From positions 12,132-76,131 of the forward strand of contig CAZHMV010000007.1 of assembly GCA_964532665.1 (NCBI GenBank): a DNA stretch of 64,000 bases, given 5' to 3'. The DNA is from an uncultured Anaerolineales bacterium (GTDB taxonomy: Bacteria > Chloroflexota > Anaerolineae > Epilineales > JAANWY01). A model generated the notes under the pieces. It did no database searches. It was not told where the DNA came from and worked only from the letters and a program-made list of their open reading frames with translations. Below are positions 43,959 through 64,000 of this stretch, piece after piece. Position 1 is the first letter of the stretch; the number at the start of each line of letters is the position of its first letter. Made by a program: the position numbers and the translations under genes.

Positions 43959-44029
43959 GGTGTGTTTGTCGGGCATCAAATGAAGAGTGGCCGCGTGACA
44001 GCCGCGGGCACGGAAACAGCGCAACTCTC

Positions 44030-44120: not shown

Positions 44121-44191
44121 CTGGCTCGCGCTCAGGGGAAATGCCGGAATGATAGCGGCGGTGCTGTTGCGTCTGGGGATGGGTAGGCCGC

Positions 44192-44389: not shown

Positions 44390-44434
44390 TTATTGGTTCG
44401 CCTCCTGATTTGATGTTCTTCGCTGGCAACTCGC

Positions 44435-44977: not shown

Positions 44978-45103
44978 CGGTTGTTAAGCCTCTTTCGGAG
45001 CTGAGAGTCTCATCGAACTGTACCTCTCGACGGTGGGGTTATTGAGCCTCTGCTCCAGGAGGCCCAACCCGGCACATGATTATAGGCGAGATGGGTTGGG
45101 CTG

Positions 45104-45631: not shown

Positions 45632-45649
45632 CCCTTTCGGATCGCCGAT

Positions 45650-46171
45650 CTAGCCTTGAACTCGGGCGGTCTCTGCTGCCAGCGCTTGCGCTTTTGCCTG
45701 CAGGGCGATGGCAACGGCCGGCGGTACCAGTGGCGAGACGTCCCCGCCGAGTAGAGCGACCTCTTTCACAAGGCTTGAGCTAAGGAATGCGTGCTCCGGG
45801 CTTGCCATCAGGCAGACAGTTTCAATGTCAGGCGTCAATTGTCGATTCATGTGGGCCATCTTGAACTCGTTCTCGAAATCTGATACGACGCGTAGCCCAC
45901 GGATGAGAACTCTTGCGCCTTGCAAACGTGCGTATGTGACCGTCAAACCACTATATGCATCTACGCGCACGTTGTTGAGATGTGAGACGGCGGCCGCTAC
46001 CATGTTCATGCGTTCTGCGGTTGAAAATAGTGGATTCTTGATGGGATGATCATGATCAAAAACGGCCATGATGACTTCGTCGAAAAGAGCGGCGGCCCGT
46101 TCGGCAATGTCTATGTGGCCGTTGGTGATCGGGTCGAAGGTTGCCGGAAAGACTGCGGTTATCATCTTCAT
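45650..46171 (-). CDS. coaD: Phosphopantetheine adenylyltransferase
   Basis: 'AVFPATFDPITNGHIDIAERAA', 'GLRVVSDFENEFKMAHMN' (PPAT motifs). Confidence 0.9.
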   Translation of the reverse strand: MKMITAVFPATFDPITNGHIDIAERAAALFDEVIMAVFDHDHPIKNPLFSTAERMNMVAAAVSHLNNVRVDAYSGLTVTYARLQGARVLIRGLRVVSDFENEFKMAHMNRQLTPDIETVCLMASPEHAFLSSSLVKEVALLGGDVSPLVPPAVAIALQAKAQALAAETARVQG

Positions 46172-46186
46172 TCGCTTGTTTCAGTT

Positions 46187-48838: not shown

Positions 48839-48863
48839 GCCGATCCCCTCATGGTGTTACACG

Positions 48864-49709
48864 TTATTGGTCTGTGCCCACAACGCACGCAATTCCAACG
48901 GCGCCCGGGCCGGCGTGGGTGCCGACTACCGGGCCGGCTTCCGTGATGAGAATGCGTTCGATGGGATGTAGTGCTCCCAGCCGCTCCCGGACCTGAGCGG
49001 CCAACTCAGGTGCGGCGGCGTGAATGACGGCCACTTCTTCCAGCGGTAGCCGGTCGCCGGCGATCTGGATCAGTCGGTCTACCGCCCGGCGCATGGTACG
49101 GGCATTTTCCAGCGGCACAAGCTCGCTGTTCTGGAAGGCGACCAGCGGTTTCACGCGCAATAGGGCCCCCATCATGGCGGCCGCCCGCCCGATGCGCCCG
49201 CCCCGGCGCGCGTATTCCAGGGTATCGAGCACGGCCCACAGCCGCAATCTTGGTATCGTCCGCTCGATGAGGTCAAGGATCTCTTCCAAAGCGCGGCCGG
49301 CCCGGGCTGCTCTCGCGGCCAGAATGGTCAACCACCCCTCCGCCATGGCAATCTGCGTCGAGTCTACCACAGTGATCTCGGCGTTGTCGATCACGGCAGC
49401 AGCCGCGCGTGCCGCGTCCAGGGTTCCGCTGACGGTGTCCGGGATGTGGATCGAGATGATCTGATCAGTCTCCCGGGCCAGTCGCCGGTAGACCATCTCA
49501 AAATCGCCCACGGGCGGCTGCGACGTGGTGGGAAGTTCGTCGCTTCCCACCAGTCGGCGATAGAACTCGGCGTCGGACACGTCAACCTTGTCCCGATATG
49601 TCTTCCCGCCGATGACGACAACCGCCGGCACCACCTCGATCTCCAGCTCTCGGCAGATGTCGGGCGGAATGTCGGATATGCTGTCTGTGACGATGCGAAC
49701 CTGGCTCAT
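48864..49709 (-). CDS. DegV family fatty-acid-binding protein
   Basis: 'VRIVTDSISDIP', 'GTHAGPGAVGIA' DegV hallmarks. Confidence 0.85.
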   Translation of the reverse strand: MSQVRIVTDSISDIPPDICRELEIEVVPAVVVIGGKTYRDKVDVSDAEFYRRLVGSDELPTTSQPPVGDFEMVYRRLARETDQIISIHIPDTVSGTLDAARAAAAVIDNAEITVVDSTQIAMAEGWLTILAARAARAGRALEEILDLIERTIPRLRLWAVLDTLEYARRGGRIGRAAAMMGALLRVKPLVAFQNSELVPLENARTMRRAVDRLIQIAGDRLPLEEVAVIHAAAPELAAQVRERLGALHPIERILITEAGPVVGTHAGPGAVGIACVVGTDQ

Positions 49710-49715
49710 GGTCGG

Positions 49716-49792
49716 TGAACAGTGATCAGTGATCAGTGACCAGTGATCAGTAACCAGTAATCAGGATCTGGTCACTGATCACTGGTCACTCG
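49716..49792. repeat. Family C heptamer palindrome: (CAGTGAT/CAGTGAC/CAGTAAC)x6 then (TCACTGA/TCACTGG/TCACTCG)x3, filling the whole yloV-degV gap
   Basis: gaacagtgatcagtgatcagtgaccagtgatcagtaaccagtaatcaggatctggtcactgatcactggtcactcgg read directly. Confidence 0.85.
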
Positions 49793-51501
49793 GCTGATAG
49801 AATGTAATGGTAGTACGGCTGGCCGCCGGAGACAACTTCCACCTCCTGCGCGGGATAGGCCGCTTGAACTCGCTCGCCCAACGTTTCGGCTTGCTCGCGG
49901 GCGATGTCTTCGCCGTAGAAGATGGTAATGATTTCGTACTGGTCGGCGTCCATCTGCTCCAGCATTTCCATGACCATGTCGTCCACATTGTTGTTGGCTG
50001 TCACCAGTTGACCGTTGAGCAGGCCGATGACTTCGCCCTCTTGAACTTCCAACCCACCGATTTGTACCGAACGAACAGCGCGCGTGATTTCGCCGGTCTG
50101 TATGTCGCGTATGGCGCGGGTCATGGCTTCGGTGTTCTCGTCCAGGCCGGCCTGGTAGTTGAGGGCCAGCAGCGCCGCAATTCCCTGGGGTACTGTGTGG
50201 GTGGGAACAACGCGCACCTGACGATCGGCGAGTTCAACTGCCTGTTCAGCCACCATGAGCACGTTCTTGTTGTTGGGCAGCAGGATGACCTGGTCGCTGT
50301 CTACCGAGCTGATGGCTTCCAGCAGTTCCTGGGTGCTCGGATTCATGGTCTGGCCGCCACGGATGATCGCGCTGGCGCCCATACTCTTGAAGACATCTTC
50401 TAAACCGGGGCCAGGTACAACTGCGATGACCGCGATGCCACTCAGTTCTTCGACGGCGACGGTTTCGGGTGCCGGTCTTGCTTGTGGGCCTTCCTCGGCT
50501 TCCTCTGCCAGATCGAGCCCGATGAAGTGTTCGTGTTGCTCCTGCATGTTGTCGATCTTGATCTTGTGAAGCGTTCCGTGCTCGGTGGCGTAGTCCAGTA
50601 CCTGGCCGGGGCGGAAGGTGTGGATGTGAACGCGAATCAGATACTCGTCGCCGACGATGAGGGCGGAGTCGCCCATTTGCAGCAGGTTTTGCTTAATTTG
50701 GTCGTAGTCAAGCTGCTGTCCCTGGAGCACGAATTCGGTGCAGTAGCCGTACTCCATCTCGGTAGCGCCGGCCCGAGGAAGGGCGGCTGTCGGAACGGGT
50801 TCGGTGGGCATAGTGATCTCCAATGGTTCCCCGCGCATGTACCGCAGGGCGCCCTCGAGGATGATCTGGAGCCCCAGGCCACCCGCATCGACGACGCCGG
50901 CTTCGTGCAGTATCTTCAACAAGCTGGGGGTTTTCTCGACGGCCTTATCGGCCGCTTCAACGACATGTTCTAGCATGAGCAGGAGATCATCCGTTTTGCG
51001 GACGGTGGCTTCCGCTTCATCTGCCACTTCCCGGATGACGGTGAGGATGGTGCCCTCGACGGCGTTGGTGACAGCTTTATAGGCTGTGTTGCTGCCTTCT
51101 CGGAGCGCCCTGGTGAATCCGTCAACGTTGAAGGCCTCCGTGTCTGCCAGCGCCCGGCCAAAGCCACGCAGAATCTGAGACAGGATCACCCCCGAATTGC
51201 CACGCGCGCCCATGAGCGCGCCCTGGGAGATACCGCGTGCAATCTCGCCGGCGTGGTGCGACGGGTTCGCGGCAATCTCGGCCATGGCTGCCTCCATGGT
51301 CAGGAGCATGTTGGTTCCGGTGTCCCCATCGGGCACCGGGAAGACGTTGAGGGCATTGACGCGGGCAGCGTTCTTCTCCAGCCATGCGGTGCCGGCAGCG
51401 ATCAGTCGTTTCAGTTCTTGACCGTCACATGTGTGCCGGCTGATGCCTGGTCTGGTCGATGTCTGCCTGTCGGCCGTCCGCCGGTCAACTGCCTCCGCCA
51501 T
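49786..51501 (-). CDS. yloV: DAK2-domain fusion protein YloV (dihydroxyacetone-kinase-like)
   Basis: 571 aa; 'DGDTGTNMLLTM', DAK2 helical bundle then DegV-like C-terminal domain. Confidence 0.85.
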   Translation of the reverse strand: MAEAVDRRTADRQTSTRPGISRHTCDGQELKRLIAAGTAWLEKNAARVNALNVFPVPDGDTGTNMLLTMEAAMAEIAANPSHHAGEIARGISQGALMGARGNSGVILSQILRGFGRALADTEAFNVDGFTRALREGSNTAYKAVTNAVEGTILTVIREVADEAEATVRKTDDLLLMLEHVVEAADKAVEKTPSLLKILHEAGVVDAGGLGLQIILEGALRYMRGEPLEITMPTEPVPTAALPRAGATEMEYGYCTEFVLQGQQLDYDQIKQNLLQMGDSALIVGDEYLIRVHIHTFRPGQVLDYATEHGTLHKIKIDNMQEQHEHFIGLDLAEEAEEGPQARPAPETVAVEELSGIAVIAVVPGPGLEDVFKSMGASAIIRGGQTMNPSTQELLEAISSVDSDQVILLPNNKNVLMVAEQAVELADRQVRVVPTHTVPQGIAALLALNYQAGLDENTEAMTRAIRDIQTGEITRAVRSVQIGGLEVQEGEVIGLLNGQLVTANNNVDDMVMEMLEQMDADQYEIITIFYGEDIAREQAETLGERVQAAYPAQEVEVVSGGQPYYHYILSAE

Positions 51502-51542
51502 GCTGCGCTCCGTTCATTGTTTAACATCTCTTTCAGCTCGCA

Positions 51543-51893
51543 CTAACTCACCCGCAATCCCTGAACATGGACATTGACGCTCGCGACGGGGATGCCCAGG
51601 GCATGTTCGACAGCGTATTTTACATTGTGCATGATGTTTTGGGCAACTTCGGAAATGCGGGTGCCGTATTCCAGAACGACATACAGGTCGATAACAATCT
51701 CGTCATTGACCAGCCGGGCCTGGACACCGCGCCGGTAGTTCTCGCGCCCCAGGATTTCGGCCAGGCCATGGCGCAGGCTCGGCGACGACATGCCGACGAC
51801 GCCATAACAGGTCAGCACGGCCTGGCTGGCCAGGGCCGCGACGGCCGCCGGCGAGATTTCGATTTTACCCAGTTGGGTGTGTTCACCTGGCAT
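51543..51893 (-). CDS. yloU: Asp23/Gls24 family protein (YloU-like)
   Basis: 116 aa; 'GKIEISPAAVAALASQAVLTCYGVVGM...IDLYVVLEYGTRISEVAQNI'. Confidence 0.8.
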   Translation of the reverse strand: MPGEHTQLGKIEISPAAVAALASQAVLTCYGVVGMSSPSLRHGLAEILGRENYRRGVQARLVNDEIVIDLYVVLEYGTRISEVAQNIMHNVKYAVEHALGIPVASVNVHVQGLRVS

Positions 51894-51972
51894 GTTTTTC
51901 CCTCTCGCGCAGGTTTGTCAAAACGACGCGCCTGTGGTAATATTATCCCCCGTGTAAAGGGGGTGAAATTGT

Positions 51973-52176
51973 ATGGCTAAATGCGAAGTTTGTGGTAAGG
52001 GCCCACAGTTTGGGCACAACGTCAGCCACTCCATGCGGCACACCAAGCGGCAGTTCAAGCCGAACATTCAAAAGAAGACCGTCTATGTTGAAGGTCAGAA
52101 GCGCCGCATTCATATCTGCATGAAGTGTTTGAAGAATCTGGACTATCGGATTGCAACGGGTGATGTGCGGCTCTGA
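51973..52176 (+). CDS. rpmB: 50S ribosomal protein L28 (Zn-ribbon variant)
   Basis: 67 aa 'MAKCEVCGKGPQFGHNVSHSMRHTKRQFKPNIQK...CMKCLKN'; divergent from yloU-yloV as in Bacillus-type rpmB synteny. Confidence 0.75.
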   Translation: MAKCEVCGKGPQFGHNVSHSMRHTKRQFKPNIQKKTVYVEGQKRRIHICMKCLKNLDYRIATGDVRL

Positions 52177-52196
52177 GAGCAGCACATCTCCGTTTT

Positions 52197-53339
52197 CTAC
52201 TCCTTCCCAATCGTCTGTCCTACAAGCCCCTCGTCCACCCGGGTACGCAACTGCCCACAGCCGGCCTGCACATCAATTCCGCGTCGAACGCGCAGCGTGG
52301 TCGGGATGCCGTGCTGTTCCAGAATGTCCTGAAACGCCACACAGCGGTCGTAGGATGACGGACGCATGTCGGAGCCGGGCGTCGGGTTGAGCGGGATCAG
52401 GTTGACGTGACATAACATGCCCTGGATCAGGCCGGCCAGCGCAGCGGCGTGCTCTGGAAAGTCATTCACGCCGTCGATCATTACGTACTCGAAGGTGATG
52501 CGCCGACCGGTGTGTGCCAGATACTCGCGGCAGGCATCCAGCACCTCGCCCAGCGGGTGTTGCACGTTGATAGGCACCAGTTGGTTGCGCAGTTCGTCGT
52601 TGGGGGCGTGCAGCGAGACTGCCAGTCGCACCTGGAGGCCAGCCCGCGCCAGCTTGCGGATACCCGGCACCAGACCGACGGTTGAGATTGTCATCCGCCG
52701 CGCTCCCAGGTTGAACCCATCGGCGTCGTTCAGCGTTTGGACGGCTTGCCAGGTGGCTGGCCAGTTCGCCAGGGGTTCGCCCATCCCCATGAACACCAGG
52801 TTGGTAAGCCGCTTACCCTGCCCGCGCAACTCCCGTGCCAGGTAGACCGCCTGCTCAATGATTTCGCCGGCTGTCATCTGGCGCATCAGACCCATCTGCC
52901 CAGTTGCGCAGAAGATACAGCCCATAGCACAGCCGACCTGGGTGGAAATGCAGGCGGTGTGGCGTCCCCGGTTGCGACCATTGGTCTCATCCAGCGGCTC
53001 GCCGGCGGTTTCACTGCGGTAGTCGGGGTCGCCGGGTTGGTAGTGCATCAGGACAGCCTCGACGCGCTCGCCGTCCGCCAGTTGGAACAGGGTCTTGCGG
53101 GCCGGCGTCGTCTGCGAATGCATCTCGGCGACCGGCGCGACGGTGTGGATGGCCGCAACCTCCTCCAGTCGCTCCCGCAGTCCTGTGGGCAGGTTTGTCA
53201 TCTCGTCGAAGCCGGCCGCCAGGTGGTGGTACAGCCAGTCCCAAATCTGGTCAGCCCGGTAGCGTGGCTCACCGAGTTCTCGAACGAAATCTTCAAGCTC
53301 TGCATGGGTGAGATCGAAGAGATGGGCTTTGGTAGGCAT
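52197..53339 (-). CDS. rlmN: 23S rRNA (adenine2503-C2)-methyltransferase, radical SAM
   Basis: 'CISTQVGCAMGCIFCATG' CxxxCxxC, 'GEPLAN', C-terminal Cys. Start set at MPTKAHLFDL...; the track's 5' extension to 53453 is encoded by the Family A repeat. Confidence 0.9.
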   Translation of the reverse strand: MPTKAHLFDLTHAELEDFVRELGEPRYRADQIWDWLYHHLAAGFDEMTNLPTGLRERLEEVAAIHTVAPVAEMHSQTTPARKTLFQLADGERVEAVLMHYQPGDPDYRSETAGEPLDETNGRNRGRHTACISTQVGCAMGCIFCATGQMGLMRQMTAGEIIEQAVYLARELRGQGKRLTNLVFMGMGEPLANWPATWQAVQTLNDADGFNLGARRMTISTVGLVPGIRKLARAGLQVRLAVSLHAPNDELRNQLVPINVQHPLGEVLDACREYLAHTGRRITFEYVMIDGVNDFPEHAAALAGLIQGMLCHVNLIPLNPTPGSDMRPSSYDRCVAFQDILEQHGIPTTLRVRRGIDVQAGCGQLRTRVDEGLVGQTIGKE

Positions 53340-53393
53340 CGATTCTGTCGGGTCGGGAGTTGATCTTCGCCGGACGCGAAGCGACTTCGGCAG

Positions 53394-53470
53394 GCGTGAA
53401 ACGTAAAACGTGAAACGTGAGGATGGGTCAATGAAGAAACTATCACGTTTCACGCTTCACGTTTCACGCC
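53394..53470. repeat. Family A heptamer palindrome (GCGTGAA ACGTAAA ACGTGAA ACGTGAG - spacer - TCACGTT TCACGCT TCACGTT TCACGCC)
   Basis: Read directly between the Zn-peptidase gene and rlmN. Confidence 0.85.
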
Positions 53471-53499
53471 GTTGGGCCGGCGCATCCAACGTTGCCGGC

Positions 53500-54192
53500 C
53501 TAGCTTCGCCGGCGCCCGCCGGAAAGCAGCAGTACCAGATACAGCAGTTGCATGACGGCCTGAGCCAGTGCAGCCACGTAGGTCAGCGCTGCGGCCCGGA
53601 GAACGCTTTTCGCTCCTTTCAGATCGTGCTGACTCAACAGGTTGGTTTGCCTGAGCATGGTCAGAGCCCGGCTGCTGGCGTTGAGCTCCACCGGAAGTGT
53701 CACCAGCGTGAATAGCACGGCTGCCGAGAATAGGGCAACGCCCAGCCAGGCCAGACCGCTCAGCCTGAAAACCAGGCCGCCGAAGGCCAGCCAGATACCC
53801 AGGGTCGAGCCCAGGTTCGCAGCCGGCACCAGGGTCGAGCGGAATCGCATCATGGCATATCCTTGCTTATCCTGAACCGCGTGACCCACCTCGTGGGCCA
53901 CGATGGCCATGGACGCGATTGAACGCCCATTCGCTACGTCCGGGCTCAGCCGCAGAACCTTGCCCTTGGGGTCATAGTGATCTGACAGATTCCCCGGCAC
54001 CCCTTCGATGTCAATGCCGTACAGGCCATTCGCGTTGAGAAGTTCCTGGGCTGCCTGGTAGCCGCTGATCCCGCGTTCATTCGGGACCCGTGAGTACTTC
54101 TGATATGCAGTACGGACCTGCCACTGGGCATATATGGCCAACAGAAGGGCCGGCATGGTTAATATGAGATATAGTGGGTCAAACCAAAACAT
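53500..54192 (-). CDS. Membrane-associated zinc metallopeptidase (YugP / Zn_peptidase_2 family)
   Basis: 230 aa; 'IVAHEVGHAVQD' HExxH, flanking TM helices. Confidence 0.75.
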   Translation of the reverse strand: MFWFDPLYLILTMPALLLAIYAQWQVRTAYQKYSRVPNERGISGYQAAQELLNANGLYGIDIEGVPGNLSDHYDPKGKVLRLSPDVANGRSIASMAIVAHEVGHAVQDKQGYAMMRFRSTLVPAANLGSTLGIWLAFGGLVFRLSGLAWLGVALFSAAVLFTLVTLPVELNASSRALTMLRQTNLLSQHDLKGAKSVLRAAALTYVAALAQAVMQLLYLVLLLSGGRRRS

Positions 54193-54284
54193 GTCATTCC
54201 TCCACTTTCTTCCTTACGCAATCGGATACAATCTTACCATAGATGCAGGCTAACAGCAAGTGTTTTGTCAATTGGTGTGTCTTC

Positions 54285-55076
54285 CTATCGCCAGGCTGCC
54301 AGGAGTTGCTCCAGATTGTCGAAGACCACGTCTGGTTGGACTTCGGCGTGGGGCAGGTCGTCCCGAGACGTCGCGCCTGTGAGGATCAGGATGGTCCGCA
54401 GGCCGGTCCTGGCCCCGCCCACAATGTCTGTCTCCAGCCGGTCGCCCAGCATCGCGGTCTCACCTGCAGCGGTGTTCAGCTTCTCCAGGGCCATGGCGAA
54501 GACACCTGACTGTGGCTTACCGATGATCTGAGGTGCTGTGTCCGTTGCCGCCTCGATAGCGGCCAGAATGGAGCCGGTACCGGGTTCCAGACCTCGTTCG
54601 GTGGGCAACGTGCGATCAGGATTGGTGCCGATGAAGGTAGCGCCGGCCCGGATGGCCTGCGTGGCGGTACTGAGCTTCTGGTACGTGATGTCTGTATCCA
54701 GGCCGGTCACCACGTACTCGGGAGATGTGTCGGTCAGCACGAAACCCTGTTCGCGCAGCGCCTCCGCCAGTCCCCCCATGCCGATCATGTATACCGGCGT
54801 TCCCGGCTCGGACTCACCGGCCAGGTACAACGCCGTGGCTACCGCCGACGTCATGATCCGCTCAGGTGGCACCTCAATGCCCATGCGGGCGAGTTTCTCG
54901 GCGTACTGCGCCACTGTCAGCGTTGAGTTGTTTGTAAGTAATACGTATGGCACATTGTCGCGTTGCAAAGCCTGCAAGAAAGCCCGCGCCCCCGGCAGAC
55001 GCGCCTCCCCTCGATACAGCACCCCGTCCATGTCGATGATGAATGCCTTGACTTTCTCTCTCAGGTCAGCGTTCAT
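54285..55076 (-). CDS. HAD-IIA family sugar-phosphatase (NagD-like)
   Basis: 'FIIDMDGVLY' motif I, 'LLTNNS' motif II, 'MLGDRLETDIVGG' motif IV. Confidence 0.8.
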   Translation of the reverse strand: MNADLREKVKAFIIDMDGVLYRGEARLPGARAFLQALQRDNVPYVLLTNNSTLTVAQYAEKLARMGIEVPPERIMTSAVATALYLAGESEPGTPVYMIGMGGLAEALREQGFVLTDTSPEYVVTGLDTDITYQKLSTATQAIRAGATFIGTNPDRTLPTERGLEPGTGSILAAIEAATDTAPQIIGKPQSGVFAMALEKLNTAAGETAMLGDRLETDIVGGARTGLRTILILTGATSRDDLPHAEVQPDVVFDNLEQLLAAWR

Positions 55077-56898
55077 GTAGTCGTCCTCGCCTGGCCGGTC
55101 GCATATCCTTCACGTCCAGCCGCAGCCACTCCTGGTCGTTCCACACTTCGATCTTTGGCGTATAGACCATGTCGATGCGCTCCGGCATGTTGTTGGCCCA
55201 GTGGGCCTGGCGAAATGCCATGGCATCCCAGATGATACGGTCCTGTTGCAGCTTGAGCCGCAGATGGTTCTCTTCTTCGCCCACAGTTGAATAGCCGCGC
55301 AGGGCGACGTCCCGAGCCAGGAACAGGGGGGCCGGATTCCCCACGCCGAATGGCTCCAGGTGGGTGAGGGTGCGGAAGGTCTTGGGGGTGAGTTTCGCAA
55401 GCGGCCACTCGGCATCGACGGTCAGAGCCGGCACCAGTTCCACGCCGGCCAGTTCCCGCGCCGCGATTTCGCGTAGTCGGGCGCGCAGCACCTCCAGCTT
55501 TTCGGTGGCCACGGTCAGGCCGGCTGCGGCTGCGTGCCCCCCATACTTCGTGAGCAGGTCTGCCACTTCGTCCAGCGCCTTGACAATGTTGAACTCGGGG
55601 ATGCTGCGCGCTGAGCCGTGGCTCGTCTCTTCGCCAATTTCAAGAACAAGCGACGGTCGATAAAACTGCTCGGTCAGCCGGCTGGCTACCAGGCCGACGA
55701 CACCGGGTGCGAAATCCTCGCCGCCGACCATCAGGAAAAACGCATCCTCCTGGCCTTCGATTTGCGCCAGGGCCTGTTCCAGGACGGCTTCGGTCAGCGC
55801 CTGGCGCTCGCGGTTTCGGGCGTCCAGTTTTTCCGCCAGTTGCCGGGCCTCGTCGGGGTCCTGGGTAACCAGCAACCGGTAGGCCAGCATTGCGTGGTCC
55901 AGCCGGCCGGCCGCGTTGATGCGCGGTCCCAGCACAAAACCGATGGTCTCAGAGCCGACCTGGCCGGGCTTCACGCCGGCCACTTCCATCAGCGCTCGTA
56001 CCCCGATCCGTTCTGCGCGGTTGAGGACCGCCAGACCGCGACGGACCAATGCCCGGTTTTCGCCGAGCAGCGGGGCCAGGTCTGCCACGACGCCGAGCGC
56101 AACGAGGTCCAGCAACTGTTCTTCGGTAATATCCGAAGGTGTGCTCCCCTGCTCCCCCACCCCTTTGATGGGTACGCGCCTTTCCACACGCAACAGAGCC
56201 TGAGCCAGCTTGAAGGCCAGACCGACGCCGGGCAGGTCTTTGAAGGGATAGCGGCACCCCGGTTGTTTCGGATTGATGAGGGCCAGAGCCGGCGGCAGAT
56301 CCTGTGGGGGCTCATGGTGGTCGGTGATGATCAGGTCCAGCCCCAACTGCCGGCCATGGAGCACCTCCTCGACCGCTCGGACACCACAGTCAACGGTGAT
56401 CACCACGCGGATGCCCCGGCCGGCCAGCTCATCCAACGCGCCCGTGTTCAGGCCGTAGCCCTCGCGGATCCGATGGGGAATGTACGGCTCTGCGTCGGCA
56501 CCTAACGCCCGCAGAACCTGAATCAGCAAGGCCGTGGAGGTCACGCCGTCCACGTCAAAGTCTCCGTAGACCGCAATGCGTTCGCCGTGGCGGATGGCCT
56601 GCCGAATCCGCGTTACGGCGGTGTTCATGCCCTGCAATTGGAAGGGATTATCACTATCGGGGGAGCCTTCGAGAAAGGCCTGGATGTCGGGTGGCTCGAC
56701 AAGTCCTCGGTTGAAGAGAAGTTGCACCACCAGCGGGTCCAGGCGGGGTCCTGAGGCCCCTCCTGAGGCCTGATCCGGCCCAGGCCTCGACGAAGGACCT
56801 GTCGAAGAGTCCGCAAACCGTTCCACGTGGTCCGCTGGTGCCGGCGGCGCGACTTCCCAGCGATAGCGACTTGTTTCTGTGCGTGTCTCGTGACTCAT
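55066..56898 (-). CDS. recJ: Single-stranded-DNA-specific exonuclease RecJ
   Basis: 610 aa; 'IAVYGDFDVDGVTSTALL', 'ITDHHEP' DHH motifs, DHHA1 'GGHAAAAG'. Confidence 0.9.
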   Translation of the reverse strand: MSHETRTETSRYRWEVAPPAPADHVERFADSSTGPSSRPGPDQASGGASGPRLDPLVVQLLFNRGLVEPPDIQAFLEGSPDSDNPFQLQGMNTAVTRIRQAIRHGERIAVYGDFDVDGVTSTALLIQVLRALGADAEPYIPHRIREGYGLNTGALDELAGRGIRVVITVDCGVRAVEEVLHGRQLGLDLIITDHHEPPQDLPPALALINPKQPGCRYPFKDLPGVGLAFKLAQALLRVERRVPIKGVGEQGSTPSDITEEQLLDLVALGVVADLAPLLGENRALVRRGLAVLNRAERIGVRALMEVAGVKPGQVGSETIGFVLGPRINAAGRLDHAMLAYRLLVTQDPDEARQLAEKLDARNRERQALTEAVLEQALAQIEGQEDAFFLMVGGEDFAPGVVGLVASRLTEQFYRPSLVLEIGEETSHGSARSIPEFNIVKALDEVADLLTKYGGHAAAAGLTVATEKLEVLRARLREIAARELAGVELVPALTVDAEWPLAKLTPKTFRTLTHLEPFGVGNPAPLFLARDVALRGYSTVGEEENHLRLKLQQDRIIWDAMAFRQAHWANNMPERIDMVYTPKIEVWNDQEWLRLDVKDMRPARRGRLHER

Positions 56899-56981
56899 GC
56901 CGGATATTATAGGTCAAGCTGGCCGGTCTGGCAATTTCGGCCTCCTTGCAAGGCTACATAATATGTGCTACAATACTGGCT

Positions 56982-57926
56982 ATGGGGATTCGGGTTGTTT
57001 TCATGGGGACGCCGGCCTTCTCGGTTCCGTCGCTGATGCGGCTTATCGAGGACGAGGCGTTCGACGTGGTAGCGGTTTTCACGCAGCCGGATCGGCCGGC
57101 CGGTCGTGGGCGTGCGCCAACACTGTCACCGGTGAAGCAGGTGGCGCTGGGACATGACATAACTATGTTTCAGCCCCAGCGTCTGCGCGACAACCAGGAG
57201 ATGCTCCATGTGTTGCGTGATCTTGCACCGGAGGTCATCGTGGTGGCTGCCTATGGCCTGATTCTGCCGGCTGCCGTGCTGGAGGTTCCGCCTCACGGTT
57301 GCATCAACGTTCACGCGTCGCTGCTGCCCAAATACCGGGGTGCGGCGCCGGTCGCGGCGGCGATTCTCAATGGGGATGAGGAGACCGGGGTCACCATCAT
57401 GCTGATGGACGAAAAGATGGACCATGGGCCGATCCTGGCCTGGCGATCCACGCCCATTGAGCCTGATGATACCCGGGGGATGCTCACCGAGCGCCTGGCT
57501 GATCTGGGCGCTGACCTCCTGGGTGAGACGCTGCCGCAGTGGGTGGCCGGCGACATCGAAGCCCGGCCCCAGGATCACGCCGCTGCCACCTACACGCATA
57601 TCCTGAAGAAAGAAGACGGCGCGATCGACTGGACCCAGCCGGCGATTCGCATTGCTCGCATGACCCGGGCCTACGACCCGTGGCCCGGCGCATACACCTA
57701 TCTCAATCGCCGGGTGTTTAAGTTGCTGAAGGCCCAGGCCATCGATCTTGTGGCGGTCGATGTTCGGCCGGGCCAGGTGGTCGAGACCGACCAGGGCCTG
57801 GCAGTGGCTGCCGGTGATGGTGCTGTACTTCTGGAGAGAGTCCAGTTGGCCGGCAAGCGAGCAATGGACATCGAGTCCTTTGCCCGTGGCCGGCGCGACT
57901 TTATCGGTTCCGTACTCGGGACCTGA
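56982..57926 (+). CDS. fmt: Methionyl-tRNA formyltransferase
   Basis: 'MGIRVVFMGTPAFSVP', 'INVHASLLPKYRGAAPV' (formyltransferase SLLP motif), C-terminal Fmt domain. Confidence 0.9.
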   Translation: MGIRVVFMGTPAFSVPSLMRLIEDEAFDVVAVFTQPDRPAGRGRAPTLSPVKQVALGHDITMFQPQRLRDNQEMLHVLRDLAPEVIVVAAYGLILPAAVLEVPPHGCINVHASLLPKYRGAAPVAAAILNGDEETGVTIMLMDEKMDHGPILAWRSTPIEPDDTRGMLTERLADLGADLLGETLPQWVAGDIEARPQDHAAATYTHILKKEDGAIDWTQPAIRIARMTRAYDPWPGAYTYLNRRVFKLLKAQAIDLVAVDVRPGQVVETDQGLAVAAGDGAVLLERVQLAGKRAMDIESFARGRRDFIGSVLGT

Positions 57927-58117
57927 TTTCAAACTTAGATGGCGCTTCACGCTTCCAGGCATCGAAACAGATGCCAGCGCCGCCCGTTTGAACAAGGGGT
58001 ACGAGGGTGCGGGAGAACGGGAGAGAGACCTGACAAACGAGAATCTTTTCTCCCCTGCTCCCATGCACGTTCGCACTCCTGCTCAGACGGAGCCCTGCCC
58101 CGGCGAAAGGGAAGACG

Positions 58118-59194
58118 ATGGACAACATATCGGAGCCGCCCCAGCGCTCAGGCGGTATTGACTTCGATCAAAGTGACGTCCGTGCTGAGGACCTCGTCGG
58201 ACGTGACAAGTTCGAATTCAACCTGCCCGAGATACCGCGTAAGGGTTGCTATGCCCAGTTATCCAAGAACATTAAGTTCGTTGTTTCTCTTGGCGTGCTG
58301 CTGCTCTTGATCTACGCTGTTTTCCAGCAGTTGAACCGGCCGAGTGTGTCGGAGCAGACGCCGACGCCGACGGCTGTGGAAACGGCGACGCCAACTGGAA
58401 CGCCAGAACCTTTAACAACGCCAACAGTAGAGGCCCAGGGGCCGTTGCCGGGGACACAGACACCGGAGCCCCCGTTCGGGCGAGCTACGTCGGTGGTCCG
58501 GCCAGAGACTCGGACGCCCGTGGTGGTTACGGCTACCTTGACGCCTGTCGTAGCCGCCTCGCCCACGACGCGACGTGTTGTCGCCACGGTCACGCCTGGA
58601 ACCATTGGGCCGTCTACGCCGGTCGTGCGGCCGCCGACGCCAACGCCACGACGGACCCCGACACCGGTGCCCACCACAGCGGTTCCGAGCCCGCGTCCGC
58701 TGCCGACGGTGACGCCGCGGCCACCAACGCCGACGCCGAATCCGTGCCTGTCGGCGGCTGTCCGTCTTGGGCCTGTTGCCAGGCTTGTGACGGAAGGGGA
58801 TACATTCACCGCCAGCGTGCTCATCTCTTGTGCGGTGAACCTGGCTGGCTACCAGATTGAATTGCGCTTTGATCCGGCTGTCGTGGTCGTCCGGGGTGTG
58901 GATAACGGCGGGTTCCTGGGCAGTGCCGGCGGGTCGGTGTTCGCCCCGGATCCAGCGATGGATAACAGTGCTGGCATAGCAACCATCAGTGCGATTGTGC
59001 TGCGGCCTGGACCGTATCCGAGTGGCTCGGGCACTCTGGCTTCCTTCAGTTTGAAGGCTGTTGGTCCGGGATCTACAGATCTGGACGTGGGTGTGAGCCT
59101 GTCGGACGTAAACGGAGAGTCGATACCGGTCAGTGTCACCGATGGCGCTGTCGTCGTCCAGCCGCAGGCCACGGCTGTGCCGAGTGAGCCGTAG
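58118..59194 (+). CDS. Membrane-anchored protein with long Pro/Thr-rich linker and C-terminal cohesin-like domain
   Basis: 358 aa; TM 'FVVSLGVLLLLIYAVF'; TPTPT linker; 'GDTFTASVLISCAVNLAGYQIELRFDPAVVVV' cohesin-type beta sandwich. Confidence 0.6.
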   Translation: MDNISEPPQRSGGIDFDQSDVRAEDLVGRDKFEFNLPEIPRKGCYAQLSKNIKFVVSLGVLLLLIYAVFQQLNRPSVSEQTPTPTAVETATPTGTPEPLTTPTVEAQGPLPGTQTPEPPFGRATSVVRPETRTPVVVTATLTPVVAASPTTRRVVATVTPGTIGPSTPVVRPPTPTPRRTPTPVPTTAVPSPRPLPTVTPRPPTPTPNPCLSAAVRLGPVARLVTEGDTFTASVLISCAVNLAGYQIELRFDPAVVVVRGVDNGGFLGSAGGSVFAPDPAMDNSAGIATISAIVLRPGPYPSGSGTLASFSLKAVGPGSTDLDVGVSLSDVNGESIPVSVTDGAVVVQPQATAVPSEP

Positions 59195-59239
59195 TCGATC
59201 TGACTGTAGATTGCCCATGGCCGACTGCGAGTCTCAGAT

Positions 59240-59262
59240 GGGGATCTGACGATCCCTTTTGA
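59240..59262 (+). terminator. Rho-independent terminator GGGGATC-tgac-GATCCC-TTTT
   Basis: Read directly after the cohesin-like gene. Confidence 0.5.
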
Positions 59263-59315
59263 ACGAGTTTTGGGGTCTACTGAGTTTGCCGGCGGTCGGC
59301 GATTGGGTGTTGGAG

Positions 59316-60005
59316 ATGTGTATGTACTTGTTGAATCTTGGATTGGTACCGTACGACGAAGGTTTGAAGCTGCAACATCGACTGGTTGCGGCACGGAAAG
59401 CCGGCCAACTGGATGACATCCTGATCCTGCTGGAACACCCACCGGTCATCACGCTGGGCCGGCAGGCGGATGAGACAAACATCATCGCCGCTCCCGAGTT
59501 CCTCGACCAACTGGGCGTTCAGGTTCGGCGGGTCGAGCGGGGCGGCGATGTCACCTACCACGGCCCTGGACAACTCATGGGCTACCCGATCCTGAACCTG
59601 CGCAATCATCGCAAAGATGTTGGTTGGTACATTCGCTCGTTGCAGAAAGCCCTGGTCGGTGCGCTGGCGGACTTCGGGATCGAGGCGGAAGCGCGCACTG
59701 GTCGCGACACCGGCGTGTGGGTGGGCAATGACAAAATTGTTGCCATCGGCGCTCGCATCGAGGAGTGGGTATCTTTCCACGGCTTCGCATTGTACGTCGA
59801 TCCCATCATGTCCCACTTCGACCTCATCGTGCCGTGTGGGCTGCGTGACCGGGGCGTCATCGGAATGCGGCAGGTCGTTGGCGAATCCGTCGATATGGAG
59901 GCTGTCCGACGGGCTGTTGCGAAGCATTTCGCGATTGTGTTCGATGTTGACCTGGACGATGTGACTCTAGCCGGACTTGAGTTCCCAGAACCTGCGTCAG
60001 CCTGA
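59316..60005 (+). CDS. lipB: Lipoyl(octanoyl) transferase
   Basis: 'LLEHPPVITLGR', 'RGGDVTYHGPGQL', 'KIVAIGARI' LipB blocks. Confidence 0.9.
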   Translation: MCMYLLNLGLVPYDEGLKLQHRLVAARKAGQLDDILILLEHPPVITLGRQADETNIIAAPEFLDQLGVQVRRVERGGDVTYHGPGQLMGYPILNLRNHRKDVGWYIRSLQKALVGALADFGIEAEARTGRDTGVWVGNDKIVAIGARIEEWVSFHGFALYVDPIMSHFDLIVPCGLRDRGVIGMRQVVGESVDMEAVRRAVAKHFAIVFDVDLDDVTLAGLEFPEPASA

Positions 60006-60023
60006 CGCCTGGCGACTGCATCT

Positions 60024-60674
60024 GTGGCTAACATCATGTCAAACGAAACTCCATTCGTTTTTCGTAAGGTCGTTGTCGGTCCCTGGCCGATGAATACCTT
60101 CGTTTTGATTGACCCATCCGGGGGGAGCAGTATCGTCGTCGATCCCGGCGCCGATGCCAACGCCATCCTGGCGGCCACGTCTGGCCTGCCTGTCTACAAG
60201 ATTCTGTTGACCCATGCCCATCCCGATCACATTGGCGCATTGTCAGCCGTGGCGGGAGCGACGGGAGCGCCTGTGGCGGCCCATGCGGACAGCGCCGGCC
60301 TGCTCGCGGTCCCGCCGGATGATGAACTCCACGACGGCGATGTGGTGCGCCTGGGCGTACGCGAGATTCGCGTGATCGAAACCCCGGGCCACGCGCCTGG
60401 TCACCTGAGTTTCCTGATCGGAAGCGACCTGATTGGTGGCGATGTGCTGTTCCCTGGCGGCCCAGGCCACACCGACACGCCCCAGGACTTCCAGCAGATT
60501 CTCGAGACGATCACGCAGAAGTTGTTTGCCTTGCCGGGTGAGACAGTTGTCCATCCAGGTCACGGCGAGTCTGTGACGATCGGTCAGGCGAAGGCGGAGT
60601 ACGAGAAGTTCGCGGAGCGGCAGATGCCGGCGGATCTCTGCGGCGACGTGACGTGGGAACCCAGTGAACAGTGA
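60024..60674 (+). CDS. MBL-fold metallo-hydrolase (glyoxalase-II-like)
   Basis: 'LTHAHPDHIGA' HxHxDH, 'ETPGHAPGH'. Confidence 0.85.
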   Translation: MANIMSNETPFVFRKVVVGPWPMNTFVLIDPSGGSSIVVDPGADANAILAATSGLPVYKILLTHAHPDHIGALSAVAGATGAPVAAHADSAGLLAVPPDDELHDGDVVRLGVREIRVIETPGHAPGHLSFLIGSDLIGGDVLFPGGPGHTDTPQDFQQILETITQKLFALPGETVVHPGHGESVTIGQAKAEYEKFAERQMPADLCGDVTWEPSEQ

Positions 60675-60748
60675 ACAGTGAACAGTGATCAGTAAACAGT
60701 GAACAGTTGACTGATGACTGATCACTGTTCACTGATCACTTTGGTATC
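60661..60748. repeat. Family C heptamer palindrome (CAGTGAA x3, CAGTGAT, CAGTAAA, CAGTGAA, CAGTTGA | CTGATGA CTGATCA CTGTTCA CTGATCA), near-loopless cruciform; first units encode the C-terminal ...SEQ* of the MBL gene
   Basis: Read directly; ends 9 nt before the DUF123 gene start. Confidence 0.85.
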
Positions 60749-60756
60749 TGGATTGC

Positions 60757-61218
60757 ATGGACATTACCCTGTCGGATATTGAGCGTGGAGCGCCGGGCAC
60801 TTATGTCCTTGTGATGTTCCTGGACTCGCCGACGCGCATTGTCGTTGGTGCGCTTGGCCCGCTTGAATTCGACGCCGGCTATTATCTGTACGTCGGGAGT
60901 GCGCTGAACGGCCTGGCGGGCCGGCTGCGTCGCCATTGTCGGGTTGACAGCAAGAAACTCCGCTGGCACATCGACTACCTGCGTGCGCGCGCCACGCTGG
61001 TTGAGGTCTGGTGGACAGTTTCTGCCGAACGCCTGGAGTGTGAGTGGGCTGTGGCCGTGCGTGGGTTGCCCGGTGTGACTGAGCCGGTGGCCGGCTTCGG
61101 GGCCTCGGACTGCCGCTGCTCCAGCCACCTGTTTCACCTCGTAGCCAAACCCTCTTTCGATGACTTCGCCGCTCTCCAGGCCAACCGTGACATCGCTTCC
61201 ACAAGTCGCGGTTCCTGA
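60757..61218 (+). CDS. GIY-YIG nuclease superfamily protein (DUF123)
   Basis: 153 aa; 'GTYVLVMFL', 'GYYLYVGSALNGLAGRLRRH', 'RWHIDYL' of DUF123/Uri-superfamily endonucleases. Confidence 0.7.
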   Translation: MDITLSDIERGAPGTYVLVMFLDSPTRIVVGALGPLEFDAGYYLYVGSALNGLAGRLRRHCRVDSKKLRWHIDYLRARATLVEVWWTVSAERLECEWAVAVRGLPGVTEPVAGFGASDCRCSSHLFHLVAKPSFDDFAALQANRDIASTSRGS

Positions 61219-61372
61219 GAACTCATACTCCCACCAACGCTTCATTCCAATCCTGCCTCCTCCGCCCTTTGGCCTTTAATATTCAACACTTTTGTGCTAG
61301 AATAGTCCCCATGACTATACAAGCTCAGCTTCAGACGTTGCTTGACAGGTTCATCTGGATGGGACGCTAGCC

Positions 61373-61636
61373 ATGGAGCACAGGTCTGCACCTTCCAACC
61401 GTCGGCAGCGTTTTCTGCGCAGATTCGCTGTTGGGCTCACAATCTATGCGGTGCTAATCGCCGGCTACATTTTCGTACTGCGGCTATTTAGAGAGCCGTT
61501 GCTGGGGCTGTACAACACCCGCATAGTCGTGTACGCATTGGTTGCCCTGGTTCTCATTGTAGCACAGGCGCTTGTACTTGAATCTATCACCATGTTCCTC
61601 GCCGAGCATCTGGGTATCGTGACGCACGAGGAATGA
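61373..61636 (+). CDS. Small two-TM membrane protein, hypothetical
   Basis: 87 aa; coupled (ATGA overlap) to the TauE gene. Confidence 0.45.
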   Translation: MEHRSAPSNRRQRFLRRFAVGLTIYAVLIAGYIFVLRLFREPLLGLYNTRIVVYALVALVLIVAQALVLESITMFLAEHLGIVTHEE

Positions 61637-62532
61637 TGGGCATGGGCTTTCCCATCTCAGGTATTACAGTTAACCCCGTGTATCTGGTCGGCGTTGGCTT
61701 TTTAGTCGGCATCCTGGCCGGGTTTTTCGGCGTAGGTGGCGGCTTTCTGACCGGGCCGATGCTGCTGATTCTCGGTATGCCAGGCCACATGGTCCCGGGC
61801 ACAGACCTGGCGTACATGACGGGCAAATCGATGGTTGCGGCCCGACGACACCGCGCGCTGGGTCACGTTGACGTAAAATTGGGTGCTATCATGGTGACCG
61901 GTACTGTCATCGGCGTCGAGTTGGGGGCCCAGCTTATCGAGGCTCTGAAGCGTGTTGGCAGCGTAGAGGTAACACTTGGTTTAACATACATCATCACGTT
62001 GCTAAGCGTCTCGGGCTTCGTGGCATGGGAAAGTTTCCGAGCGATGCAGATGACAGGCACCGAGGCCATTGATGTGGCAGATGCCGTTAGCTTTCGAGGT
62101 TTCACAAAGCGCGTACAGAGCATTAATCTTCCACCGATGATCTCGCTGCCAGGCTCCGGCGTCGAATCGATCTCCTTTTGGGCGGTTTTCGGTGTGGGCA
62201 TAGTGACCGGGTTCCTGGCCGGCTTCCTGGGCGTGGGCGGCGGTTTCATTCGTATGCCGGCATTGGTGTACATCGTCGGCGTGCCGACCCACATCGCTGT
62301 TGGGACGGACCTCTTCGAGATTATCATCTCGTCCGCTTATGGGGCGTTGAGCCACGGGGTGAAGGGGAATGTAGATATCCTGGTAGCGTTGGTGATGCAC
62401 ACAGGCGCAGTGGTCGGTGCGCAGATCGGCGCAGTCTCTACGCAGTACGTCGGTGGTCCCAGGATTCGGCTGGCCTTCTCGGTGTTACCGCTAATCGGCG
62501 TGGCGTTGGTCATCATGAGACTCTTCGCGTGA
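61633..62532 (+). CDS. TauE/SafE family sulfite/anion exporter (DUF81)
   Basis: 299 aa; duplicated 4-TM halves each with 'GFFGVGGGF' motif. Confidence 0.8.
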   Translation: MMGMGFPISGITVNPVYLVGVGFLVGILAGFFGVGGGFLTGPMLLILGMPGHMVPGTDLAYMTGKSMVAARRHRALGHVDVKLGAIMVTGTVIGVELGAQLIEALKRVGSVEVTLGLTYIITLLSVSGFVAWESFRAMQMTGTEAIDVADAVSFRGFTKRVQSINLPPMISLPGSGVESISFWAVFGVGIVTGFLAGFLGVGGGFIRMPALVYIVGVPTHIAVGTDLFEIIISSAYGALSHGVKGNVDILVALVMHTGAVVGAQIGAVSTQYVGGPRIRLAFSVLPLIGVALVIMRLFA

Positions 62533-63405: not shown

Positions 63406-64000
63406 TGCTCATTATACACGGTACAGTTGTCACCTTTGGGAGTGACTGGCGGATCATCGAAGACGGCGCTCTCCACATCGACGCGGATCGCATCACCGAC
63501 GTCGGCACGACAACCGAGTTGACGGTTCGATATCCCGATGCCGAGATGCTCGACGCTGCCGGCAAGCTGGTGATGCCCGGCAATATCTGCGCCCACACGC
63601 ACTTCTACGGCACGTTCGCCCGCGGTCTGACCATTCCAGGTCCCCCGATGAAAAATTTCCCCGAGATTTTGGCCCGGCTGTGGTGGCCCCTGGACCGCAG
63701 CCTGGACGAAGAGGCGATTCGCTACAGCGCCCTGGTCCCTCTGGCCGACGCGATCCGCCATGGCACCACGACACTGATTGACCACCACGCCAGCAACTGC
63801 GCCATCGACGGCTCCCTGGACATCATCGCCGAAGCGGTGGGGCAGGCCGGCCTGCGAGCGTGCCTGTGCTACGAGGTGACAGACCGGGATGGGCCGGAGG
63901 TGGCGGAGGCGGGGATACGGGAGAATGAGCGGTTTATTCGGAGGGAAAAAGGGAAAAAGGGGAGAAGGGGAGAAGGGAAAAAGGAACTTCTGGCCGGCAC
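63406..64000 (+). CDS. Amidohydrolase-family (SsnA/chlorohydrolase-like) protein, 3' truncated by window edge, with Lys/Gly-rich insertion encoded by a polypurine tract
   Basis: 'MLIIHGTVVTFG', 'GKLVMPGNICAHTHFY' metal-binding HxH. Not in ORF track because it runs off the window. Confidence 0.65.
63941..63992 (+). repeat. Polypurine tract GGAGGGAAAAAGGGAAAAAGGGGAGAAGGGGAGAAGGGAAAAAGGAAC lying in frame in the amidohydrolase gene (encodes EKGKKGRRGEGKKE)
   Basis: Read directly; shares GGGAAAAAGGGAAAAAGGG with 14120-14145. Confidence 0.7.

Follow-up and report, generated by a model that had tools for sequence, protein, structure and literature searches.

Palindromic arrays of CAGTGAN heptamers overlapping upstream stop codons in an uncultured Anaerolineales bacterium

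Within a stretch of 64,000 nucleotides from contig CAZHMV010000007.1 of an uncultured Anaerolineales bacterium (hereafter the window), two palindromic arrays of the heptamer CAGTGAN, here called E1 and E2, occupy gene boundaries so tightly that each overlaps the end of one gene and approaches the start of the next, which raises the question of what such elements are and whether they act on the genes between which they lie. A previous sequence-only reading had proposed that they form a second family of heptamer palindromes, built like the ACGTGAA elements of the same window, and this was borne out by the sequence itself, by repeat finding and by four sister elements. E1 and E2 belong to a widespread class of repeat palindromes, apparently not described before, whose place is at the stop codon of the upstream gene.

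Anatomy and genomic setting of E1 and E2

E1, delimited by sequence, repeat finding and folding, extends from 49713 to 49795 on the minus strand and lies in the gap between fakA (yloV) and degV. Written on the plus strand, it opens with GGTGAA and continues with the units CAGTGAT, CAGTGAT, CAGTGAC, CAGTGAT, CAGTAAC, CAGTAAT and a final CAG, and after GATC the rest reads TGGTCAC, TGATCAC, TGGTCAC and TCGG. Since fakA and degV are both encoded on the minus strand, E1 is read on that strand within the operon transcript. The predicted minimum free energy structure of this sense strand is an uninterrupted 23-bp stem with a 10-nt loop, in which a 5' arm of 23 nt (49768-49790; GAGTGAC, CAGTGAT, CAGTGAC, CAG) is separated by the loop AUCCUGAUUA (49758-49767) from the paired portion of the 3' arm, CTGGTTACTGATCACTGGTCACT (49735-49757), with G.U pairs included. 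The surplus units, GATCACTGATCACTGTTCACCGACC (49710-49734), are mostly unpaired and leave about 25 nt (3.5 units) single-stranded on the degV side; the earlier description of E1 as nearly fully paired is therefore wrong. These units make up a leader that lacks a Shine-Dalgarno (SD) sequence and adjoins the degV start codon (49707-49709), and the N-terminus MSQVRIV encoded from there is kept in orthologues. The fakA stop codon (TGA, 49786-49788) lies within the first sense-strand unit, GAGTGAC, and within the stem.

E2 (60660-60748, plus strand) separates the gene for an MBL-fold hydrolase from a DUF123 gene. Its left array consists of three copies of CAGTGAA followed by CAGTGAT, CAGTAAA, CAGTGAA and CAGTTGA, and its right array reads CTGATGA, CTGATCA, CTGTTCA and CTGATCA. 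The predicted fold pairs a 5' arm (60670-60700) with a 3' arm (60710-60740; TGACTGA, TGACTGA, TCACTGT, TCACTGA, TCACT) in a main stem of 5 + 18 + 4 bp with small bulges, topped by a small apex. The open reading frame (ORF) of the MBL hydrolase terminates S-E-Q-TGA inside units 1 and 2 of E2, with the stop codon (60672-60674) in unit 2 and the three preceding residues encoded by the units. A short leader without an SD core, TTGGTATCTGGATTGC (60741-60756), precedes the DUF123 ATG at 60757, and its (A/G)TCTGG...(A)TYGC portion is recognisable in the orthologous leaders of three relatives (L007, L011, L012). Counted to the respective ATG, E1 ends 7 nt and E2 16 nt ahead of it; the earlier figure of 9 nt between E2 and the DUF123 gene requires that the degenerate CTTTGGT be treated as a further unit, the last clean unit ending at 60740.

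The layout common to both elements is thus a tandem CAGT(G/A)AN array, a short centre and then an inverted array, with hairpin stems of 18-23 bp. E1 and E2 share neither a common unit order nor a common loop. Of the double unit CAGTGAHCAGTGAH, 8 copies were counted in the window and none in any of 100 dinucleotide-preserving shuffles, and Tandem Repeats Finder detects both arms of each element. RNA folds of either strand of E1 and E2 gave free energies of -49 to -52 kcal/mol, compared to -24 to -29 kcal/mol for shuffled sequences (z = -6.3 to -7.3). Both elements are base-for-base identical in two independent assemblies of the Joint Genome Institute (JGI; 3300038380 and 3300023507), the window corresponding to part of JGI metagenome contig Ga0434945_000106; an assembly artefact, which had been considered from the outset, is thereby excluded. 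Protein names in public sources assign the organism to Chloroflexota/Anaerolineae. Short-read (Logan) contigs start exactly in the loop or the first unit (L003, positions 1-52; L004, 1-52; L257, 1-76), two of them within the E1 loop. Assemblers break at these palindromes, and the elements will therefore be under-represented in metagenome-assembled genomes (MAGs) built from short reads.

Domain searches confirmed the flanking genes that had been named: E1 is bordered by genes for FakA/YloV (Dak2 and FakA domains) and DegV (Pfam), E2 by those for the MBL-fold hydrolase and DUF123. Other genes of the window are core housekeeping genes, among them metG, fumarase, sodA, tatAC, nusB, fabG, fabD, recG, rpmB, rlmN, recJ and fmt, and a Pfam scan found no transposase, integrase, REP-associated tyrosine transposase (RAYT; REP, repetitive extragenic palindrome) or Y1 domain among the about 58 proteins of the window. 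E1 and E2 are chromosomal elements amid core housekeeping genes, and each takes up the entire gap at the 3' end of an ORF. E1 lies in a fakA-degV-recG operon without room for a promoter and so is presumably transcribed. The degV and DUF123 leaders contain no GGAG, GAGG or AGGA core; such a core precedes 28 of 60 genes of the window, whereas the rate at internal control codons is 9.8%. The units adjoining degV and DUF123 read TCACTGA or TGACTGA on the sense strand.

In both E1 and E2 the stop codon of the upstream gene is inside the element; the sequence-only reading had seen the embedding in E2 and missed that in E1. Each unit carries a TGA and 7 equals 1 modulo 3, so that three tandem units stop all three reading frames and any ORF entering the array ends within 21 nt. 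An element can therefore overlap the end of an ORF and supply the stop codon together with a few junk residues, such as the SEQ tail of the MBL hydrolase. This makes the embedded stops, which had been called an unusual place for neutral junk, less mysterious. A selenocysteine insertion element, in which a UGA is followed by a hairpin, was rejected on logic, as an in-frame UGA comes up again after each 21 nt and the conserved part of the proteins is complete ahead of the element.

Orthologous junctions and copies beyond the window

At the MBL-DUF123 junction, homologues of the MBL hydrolase with 70-84% identity have the common end GDVTW(E), after which there is no tail or a variable one (SEQ, GEQ, SGQ, GDQ, GQQ, SDQCPVSSK or SVISKQ). 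Palindromes of the CAGTGAx type with 4-7 left and 1-4 right units are present at this junction in L007/L008, L011 and L012; their unit variants differ, the stem in L012 has decayed, and the palindrome centre CAGAATCTCAYTACTG is common to L007 and L011. The element is missing in L009/L010 (80% identity), where the two genes are 4 nt apart. E2 is thus found in four related species with differing unit numbers and is absent from a fifth. Judged from these C-termini and the junction DNA, the SEQ tail of the MBL hydrolase is shown to derive from the element, as had been surmised. A role of the DUF123/GIY-YIG nuclease as partner of the elements was ruled out, since its gene also stands at the element-free junction of L009/L010.

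The fakA-degV junction is more varied. It is tight in L133, where it reads GAG-TGA-A-ATG (TGAAATG), and the gap is 6-20 nt long and repeat-free in L134 and L135. L257 carries a CAGTGAG/CAGTGAA palindrome with another loop and an exact TAACTGA just ahead of the ATG, and L132 carries an unrelated 140-nt palindromic insert with 20-bp arms. The arms of that insert (L132, 1070-1190; AAACCTTGCGAAGGTTC and GAACCTTCGCAAGGTTT) hold the same TTGCGAA core as a perfect (TTGCGAA)x3 repeat within the recG coding sequence of the window (47271-47291; also L001, 4414-4444). In one close relative (L256, 1-174), degV (83% identity at the protein level) is preceded by 174 nt of non-coding DNA with a TTGACA-like box and not by fakA, so that the fakA-degV linkage is not fixed in the group. 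The native end of fakA, GAG-TGA-A, is already one unit (GAGTGAA), which fits a seeding of the array by slippage. The star-like DegV tree separates neither repeated gain from repeated loss nor a single from a repeated origin of E1. Either way, the comparison of junctions indicates that the elements are dispensable and turn over fast between related species. It also shows that heptamer periodicity and arm complementarity persist while unit number and sequence change fast.

Species-representative genomes were scanned for three consecutive CAGTGAN units, and the following statements concern the matches listed. These loci come from many phyla and are mostly plain tandem arrays; all of the about 20 cyanobacterial ones are plain arrays without an inverted partner. 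Direct-plus-inverted forms were found in Chloroflexota (L058, L067, L072), Acidobacteriota (L055, L057, L064), Kiritimatiellae (L024), Rhodothermales (L080) and others. Plain arrays have a stop codon at their 5' edge, in CAGTGA sense, in 36 of 63 cases, and in 21 of 63 they lie 3-60 nt ahead of a start codon and read (NTCACTG)n on the sense strand. In a Chloroflexi MAG (L045, about 2550-2720, minus strand), a CAGTGAG array abuts a long (GCGTGAT/GCGTAAT)n array, so that two NNGTGAN heptamer families lie side by side, neither with an inverted partner.

A scan of metagenomes for the palindromic pattern yielded at least 120 contigs, and 80 copies were analyzed. They reside on contigs of 35-70% GC from many environments, are 40-143 nt long (median 76 nt) and form 16-58 pairs, some being perfectly loopless (L160). 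The profile of 755 units, which is partly constrained by the search pattern, is C87 A94 G98 T95 (G74/A16) A92 N, and position 7 is T in 43%, A in 24%, G in 18% and C in 15% of cases; CAGTTAT and CAGTAAT units are mixed into many copies. Among 2.9 million viral contigs the palindromic form is present in 3. One phage contig from IMG/VR (L258; also L259) carries CAGTGAx palindromes at 4949-5003 and 5519-5665 that bracket a 165-aa Ala/Gly-rich ORF; the second is made of about 16 direct and 5 inverted units, a normal SD follows both, and the upstream ORF ends ...AVNSEQ*, its unit-encoded tail being the one also seen in the MBL gene.

The anatomy of E1 and E2 and their anchoring at the stop codon recur in these 80 copies, making the gene-boundary placement noticed in the window a rule. 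The upstream stop lies in the first units or at most about 6 nt from them; it occupies the stop position of a unit (+3, +10, +17 or +24), as TGA or, in CAGTAAx units, as TAA, in 54 of 99 cases, and most of the others end at most 10 nt before the element edge. Relative to the predicted stem, the stops of 131 gene ends are inside it (69), 0-15 nt before it (36) or farther away (26), so that 105 of the 131 stops fall within the stem or closer than 16 nt to it. Spacer that does not belong to the element has a median length of 10.5 nt, compared to 76 nt for control gaps, and the downstream start is at most 20 nt from the opposite edge in 33 of 42 cases. According to a first ORF heuristic, 25 copies are flanked by convergent and 37 by co-directional genes, and no copy has divergent neighbours (n = 62). 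A second, greedy gene caller gave 36 convergent, 18 co-directional and 4 divergent contexts, compared to 159, 64 and 46 for other gaps of the same contigs (p = 0.07 for the depletion of divergent contexts), and all 4 divergent calls are mis-calls as judged by GC content at third codon positions.

Origin, possible action and competing explanations

The reading that we prefer, though tentatively, is that E1 and E2 are repeat-derived, REP-like palindromes that are co-transcribed with their neighbours and probably act on terminating ribosomes or on the 3' end of the mRNA. We infer that the heptamer arrays grow and shrink by replication slippage, that intrastrand template switching in a quasi-palindrome, a process at the level of DNA, maintains the likeness of the arms, and that elements survive only at sites of tolerance or seeding, namely ORF ends. 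The mRNA would then carry a long hairpin with the stop codon in its 5' foot. By analogy with E. coli REPs located less than 16 nt from a stop codon, the most likely targets of this hairpin would be ribosomes at termination and the upstream cistron's 3' end. It could cause pausing, mRNA cleavage or a barrier to exonucleases, any of which would shift the expression of one cistron relative to the other. The start-proximal arm, in turn, may provide the downstream gene with a (TNACTGA)n leader without SD, as described for the TAACTGA repeats of Beggiatoaceae.

Several points weigh against this reading. Among 39 co-directional copies, the sense RNA was more stable in 18 and the antisense RNA in 21, so that there is no G.U-type signature of selection on RNA pairing; a small sample from the window had hinted at a sense-strand G.U signal, and the test with 39 copies gave none. 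Neither the stop-proximal nor the start-proximal arm was consistently longer in the metagenomic copies. Arm symmetry therefore behaves as a property of the DNA, and homogenisation of the arms at the DNA level would account for the missing sense-strand bias. Of 33 downstream genes close to an element, 8 have an SD core after it, compared to 20% in a noisy control from which the depletion of SD sequences downstream of metagenomic elements is not distinguishable, and as some copies, for example on phage contig L258, are followed by an SD, the leader idea is not general. Forty percent of the copies lie between convergent genes and hence have no downstream cistron, and elements are gained, lost and replaced at orthologous junctions, as expected of dispensable DNA. 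Also, the gene calls on metagenomic loci came from crude ORF heuristics, sister element C (see below) lies in a divergent region according to the calls made here, and we infer every functional step proposed for E1 and E2.

By the same token, the opinion that the elements are no neutral junk is not established, given the fast turnover of junctions and the lack of the strand asymmetry expected of selection on RNA pairing. A serious rival, which we consider somewhat unlikely, is that they are functionless, tolerated by-products: slippage expands a heptamer, template switching supplies the inverted arm, selection merely filters the sites of survival (ORF ends and short gaps, never promoters), and the hairpin does nothing. 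The speed at which orthologous junctions gain, lose and remodel elements, the missing sense-strand bias and arm asymmetry, the native GAGTGAA end of fakA as a possible seed and the plain CAGTGAN arrays in many phyla all agree with this explanation, and stops in all frames alone account for the overlap with ORF ends. It accommodates less easily that 76-90 nt with a 20-bp stem, which should be costly, were accepted in the formerly tight junction of a linked pair of FakA/FakB type, and that E2 persisted through the divergence of four species at about 80% protein identity. The spacer of about 10 nt in place of the 76 nt of controls, the complete avoidance of divergent regions, the recurrence of the same heptamer across phyla and the fact that all six heptamer elements of the window are palindromic are likewise not what a mere by-product would lead one to expect.

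If instead the start-proximal (TNACTGA)n arm were an SD-independent leader for ribosomes or a regulator, masked by the stop-proximal arm, a ribosome terminating in the 5' arm would melt the stem and the downstream gene would be translated only when the upstream gene is. Such translational coupling would make sense of stops lying inside the stem (by 5 nt in E1, by 15 nt in E2 and at 69 of 131 gene ends), of starts at most 20 nt from the 3' arm in 33 of 42 cases, of the absence of SD sequences from degV and DUF123 in a genome that uses them, and of the ancestral fakA-degV junction TGAAATG, which is itself a coupling junction. The orientation agrees with that of published heptamer leaders (PMC4679880), L257 has an exact TAACTGA before the ATG, and 21 of 63 plain arrays stand in leader orientation 3-60 nt upstream of a start. 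With 25 of 62 copies between convergent genes, where no downstream cistron exists, a normal SD after some copies, no sense-strand pairing bias and no known binding protein, we regard coupling as improbable. A broader proposal, in which CAGT(G/A)AN direct-plus-inverted arrays are a cross-phylum, slippage-tuned hairpin switch anchored at the stop codon, operated by the ribosome and recognised through the heptamer by a universal partner, we rate just as improbable. Termination in the 5' arm would then decide between two fates of the message, read-through with translation of the next cistron, or cleavage with decay. Recognition by the partner would explain why the heptamer is conserved; this partner could be the ribosome or the 3' end of 16S rRNA (GUGAUC and GAUCAC being complementary), or else a conserved protein that binds RNA or DNA.

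It is even less probable that the elements are intrinsic, possibly bidirectional terminators or 3'-end stabilisers without a U-tract. The very stable stems and the position of the metagenomic copies, always at a gene 3' end, 40% convergent and never divergent, would suit such a role. A consensus scan of 44000-62000 for canonical intrinsic terminators, however, calls neither E1 nor E2, neither arm is followed by a T-run, and typical terminators have much shorter stems. Moreover, degV and recG have no room for a promoter of their own, so that efficient termination at E1 would silence both, and with the stop codon inside the stem a terminating ribosome would disrupt it. We consider a mobile element that targets stop-codon contexts, either a miniature inverted-repeat transposable element (MITE) or a REP moved by a RAYT or IS200-type transposase, to be very unlikely. 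Dispersed copies, different palindromes at the same junction in different lineages, the near-identical 30-nt right arms of sister elements C and D with differing loops, and hairpins with a recurrent GTGA/TCAC that are reminiscent of IS200/IS605 and REP ends (PMC3333891) are features that one would associate with mobility. The window, however, encodes no transposase or Y1 protein among its about 58 proteins, GTAG/CTAC is lacking, and a comparison of filled and empty junctions reveals no target-site duplication; E1 and E2 are not identical copies and share neither unit order nor loop. The layout on phage contig L258 resembles a REPtron, but the bracketed gene is an ORF of phage structural type and not a transposase, and viral contigs seldom carry the palindromic form (3 in 2.9 million).

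A role at the DNA level, as a cruciform, which the sequence-only reading had assumed, or as an array bound by a nucleoid protein, gyrase or the like for topology or replication, appears hardly credible. It would fit the pairing symmetry without transcription-strand bias, the perfectly loopless copies (L160) and the GATC that recurs every 7 bp wherever the variable position is T, yet nothing links a DNA-structural role to stop codons or to absence from divergent regions, and as position 7 of the unit is free, GATC is not required. Covariance models of Rfam 15 gave no match at gathering score in the whole window. Integron attC sites were rejected, as no GTTRRRY/RYYYAAC cores are present, the flanks are housekeeping genes that are syntenic in relatives, and the window contains no integrase.

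Returning to the preferred reading, if REP-like hairpins of this kind do act on terminating ribosomes, Chloroflexota, Acidobacteriota and other groups would possess a common layer of operon control that annotation has missed. If they do not, they offer a clean natural example of slippage and template switching building palindromes where genomes tolerate them. In practical terms, the elements add artefactual C-terminal residues to annotated proteins and break short-read assemblies.

Sister family, other repeats and known systems

Tandem Repeats Finder located four further palindromic arrays in the window, on ACGTGAA units. Element A (27097-27178), with a 25-nt loop, lies between the convergent genes for fumarase-beta and SRAP, whereas the other three were placed on the minus strand: element B (40016-40078) between tatC and the next minus-strand gene, element C (44038-44119) about 70 nt upstream of the likely fabD start, and element D (53395-53469) between a Zn-peptidase gene and rlmN. 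The right arm of D is nearly the same as that of C, the near-identity extending over 30 nt (CTATCACGTTTCACGCTTCACGTTT[T/C]ACGCC), and the loops of the two are unrelated; B and D have the inner boundary ACGTGAGGAT in common. This sharing of arms and boundaries hints at copying between loci in the sister family. Together with E1 and E2, all six heptamer elements of the window are palindromic.

Other repeats were noticed in the window. Between the tatC stop and element B, at about 40105-40250, there is a long inverted repeat with arms of about 24 bp (CTACTCA.CCCTCCCGCAGGTT ... AACCTGCGGGAGGGTG.CTGAGTAG) and a spacer of about 75 nt; it has no Rfam match and may be a structured RNA or another palindromic element. 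Purine-rich degenerate arrays of 7-8-mers (GGAGAAT/GGAAGGG/AAAAGGGA) occupy 14058-14146, in the 5' end region of the minus-strand ORF 12704-14179, and, as (AGGGAAAA)x5, 63942-63984. At 7490-7530, a (ATCCGCCC/ATCCGACC)n array fills the 50-nt gap between the convergent ORFs 4745-7486 (plus strand) and 7536-9446 (minus strand).

REPs are imperfect palindromes of 30-40 nt with a conserved 5' GTAG and a RAYT (Y1 transposase) as partner (PMC3333891). According to the summary that PMC12306157 gives of Liang, Rudd and Deutscher (2015), ribosomes stall and translation is lowered where a REP lies less than 16 nt from a stop codon. Like REPs and bacterial interspersed mosaic elements, the elements studied here are dispersed extragenic palindromes at gene 3' ends or between cistrons, variable in number per locus and probably transcribed with the flanking genes, as the operon context suggests, and their proximity to stop codons is a parameter known to affect upstream translation in REPs. 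They differ in being tandem heptamer arrays of 40-143 nt with the recurrent tetranucleotide GTGA/TCAC, and no GTAG/CTAC was found at the feet of E1 or E2. Also, 11-50% of E. coli REPs are at most 15 nt from a stop codon, compared to about 80% of the elements here, over half of which supply the stop.

Uptake sequences (DUS of Neisseria, USS of Haemophilus) are species-specific single 9-12-mers that occur as inverted pairs downstream of genes. They resemble the present elements as over-represented oligomers that form hairpins as inverted pairs at gene ends; the difference is that here tandem heptamer arrays are involved and that the same heptamer recurs across many phyla. Cyanobacterial heptanucleotide repeats termed STRRs (short tandemly repeated repetitive sequences) were reportedly described by Mazel and colleagues in 1990. 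STRRs are direct tandem arrays, mostly intergenic, with many copies per genome. We take their units to be CCCCAGT, TTGGTCA and CAACAGT. If so, CAACAGT (STRR3) would be a rotation of the CAGTCAA found as units in L011 and L067, and TTGGTCA (STRR2) would be one base from CTGGTCA of E1. STRRs and the present elements have a tandem 7-bp periodicity in common, and the inverted partner sets the latter apart.

In many bacterial genomes, no other longer microsatellites are as over-represented as heptanucleotide repeats, whose role has been a question since the STRR papers. A survey of simple sequence repeats, as cited in PMC4679880, reports a general excess of heptanucleotide repeats in prokaryotes. 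Other heptamer repeats near start codons have regulatory effects according to a Nostoc preprint, which does not give the mechanism (10.1101/2022.06.06.494920). Our literature search retrieved no paper with the present tandem sequences in a relevant context, and a search combining heptanucleotide with Chloroflexi gave no match.

The closest published relative of E1 and E2 is the TAACTGA heptamer, an intergenic direct repeat of marine Beggiatoaceae, some Cyanobacteria and Bacteroidetes (MacGregor, 2015; PMC4679880). TAACTGA repeats are anchored at start codons without a canonical ribosome-binding site (RBS), which they closely precede in forward orientation; they comprise 2-6 copies, are inverted in 1 of 170 sets, and are predicted to be unstructured; TCACTGA and TGACTGA are listed among their single-base variants (PMC4679880). 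The reverse complement, (CAGTTAT)n, is one base from the CAGTGAT of E1 and E2, and further likenesses are the intergenic position a few nucleotides before RBS-less starts, the occasional overlap with the end of the upstream ORF and the patchy distribution over phyla. The units found here are one-base variants (TCACTGA, TGACTGA, TTACTGA), an exact TAACTGA occurring only as the single unit in L257. Earlier heptamer proposals rest on direct repeats near start codons. In contrast, elements of the E1/E2 type combine a direct with an inverted array, form hairpins of 16-58 bp and lie between convergent genes in 40% of cases, and it is this direct array with its inverted copy, together with a sharp positional rule (stop-anchored, gap-filling and never divergent), that sets them apart.

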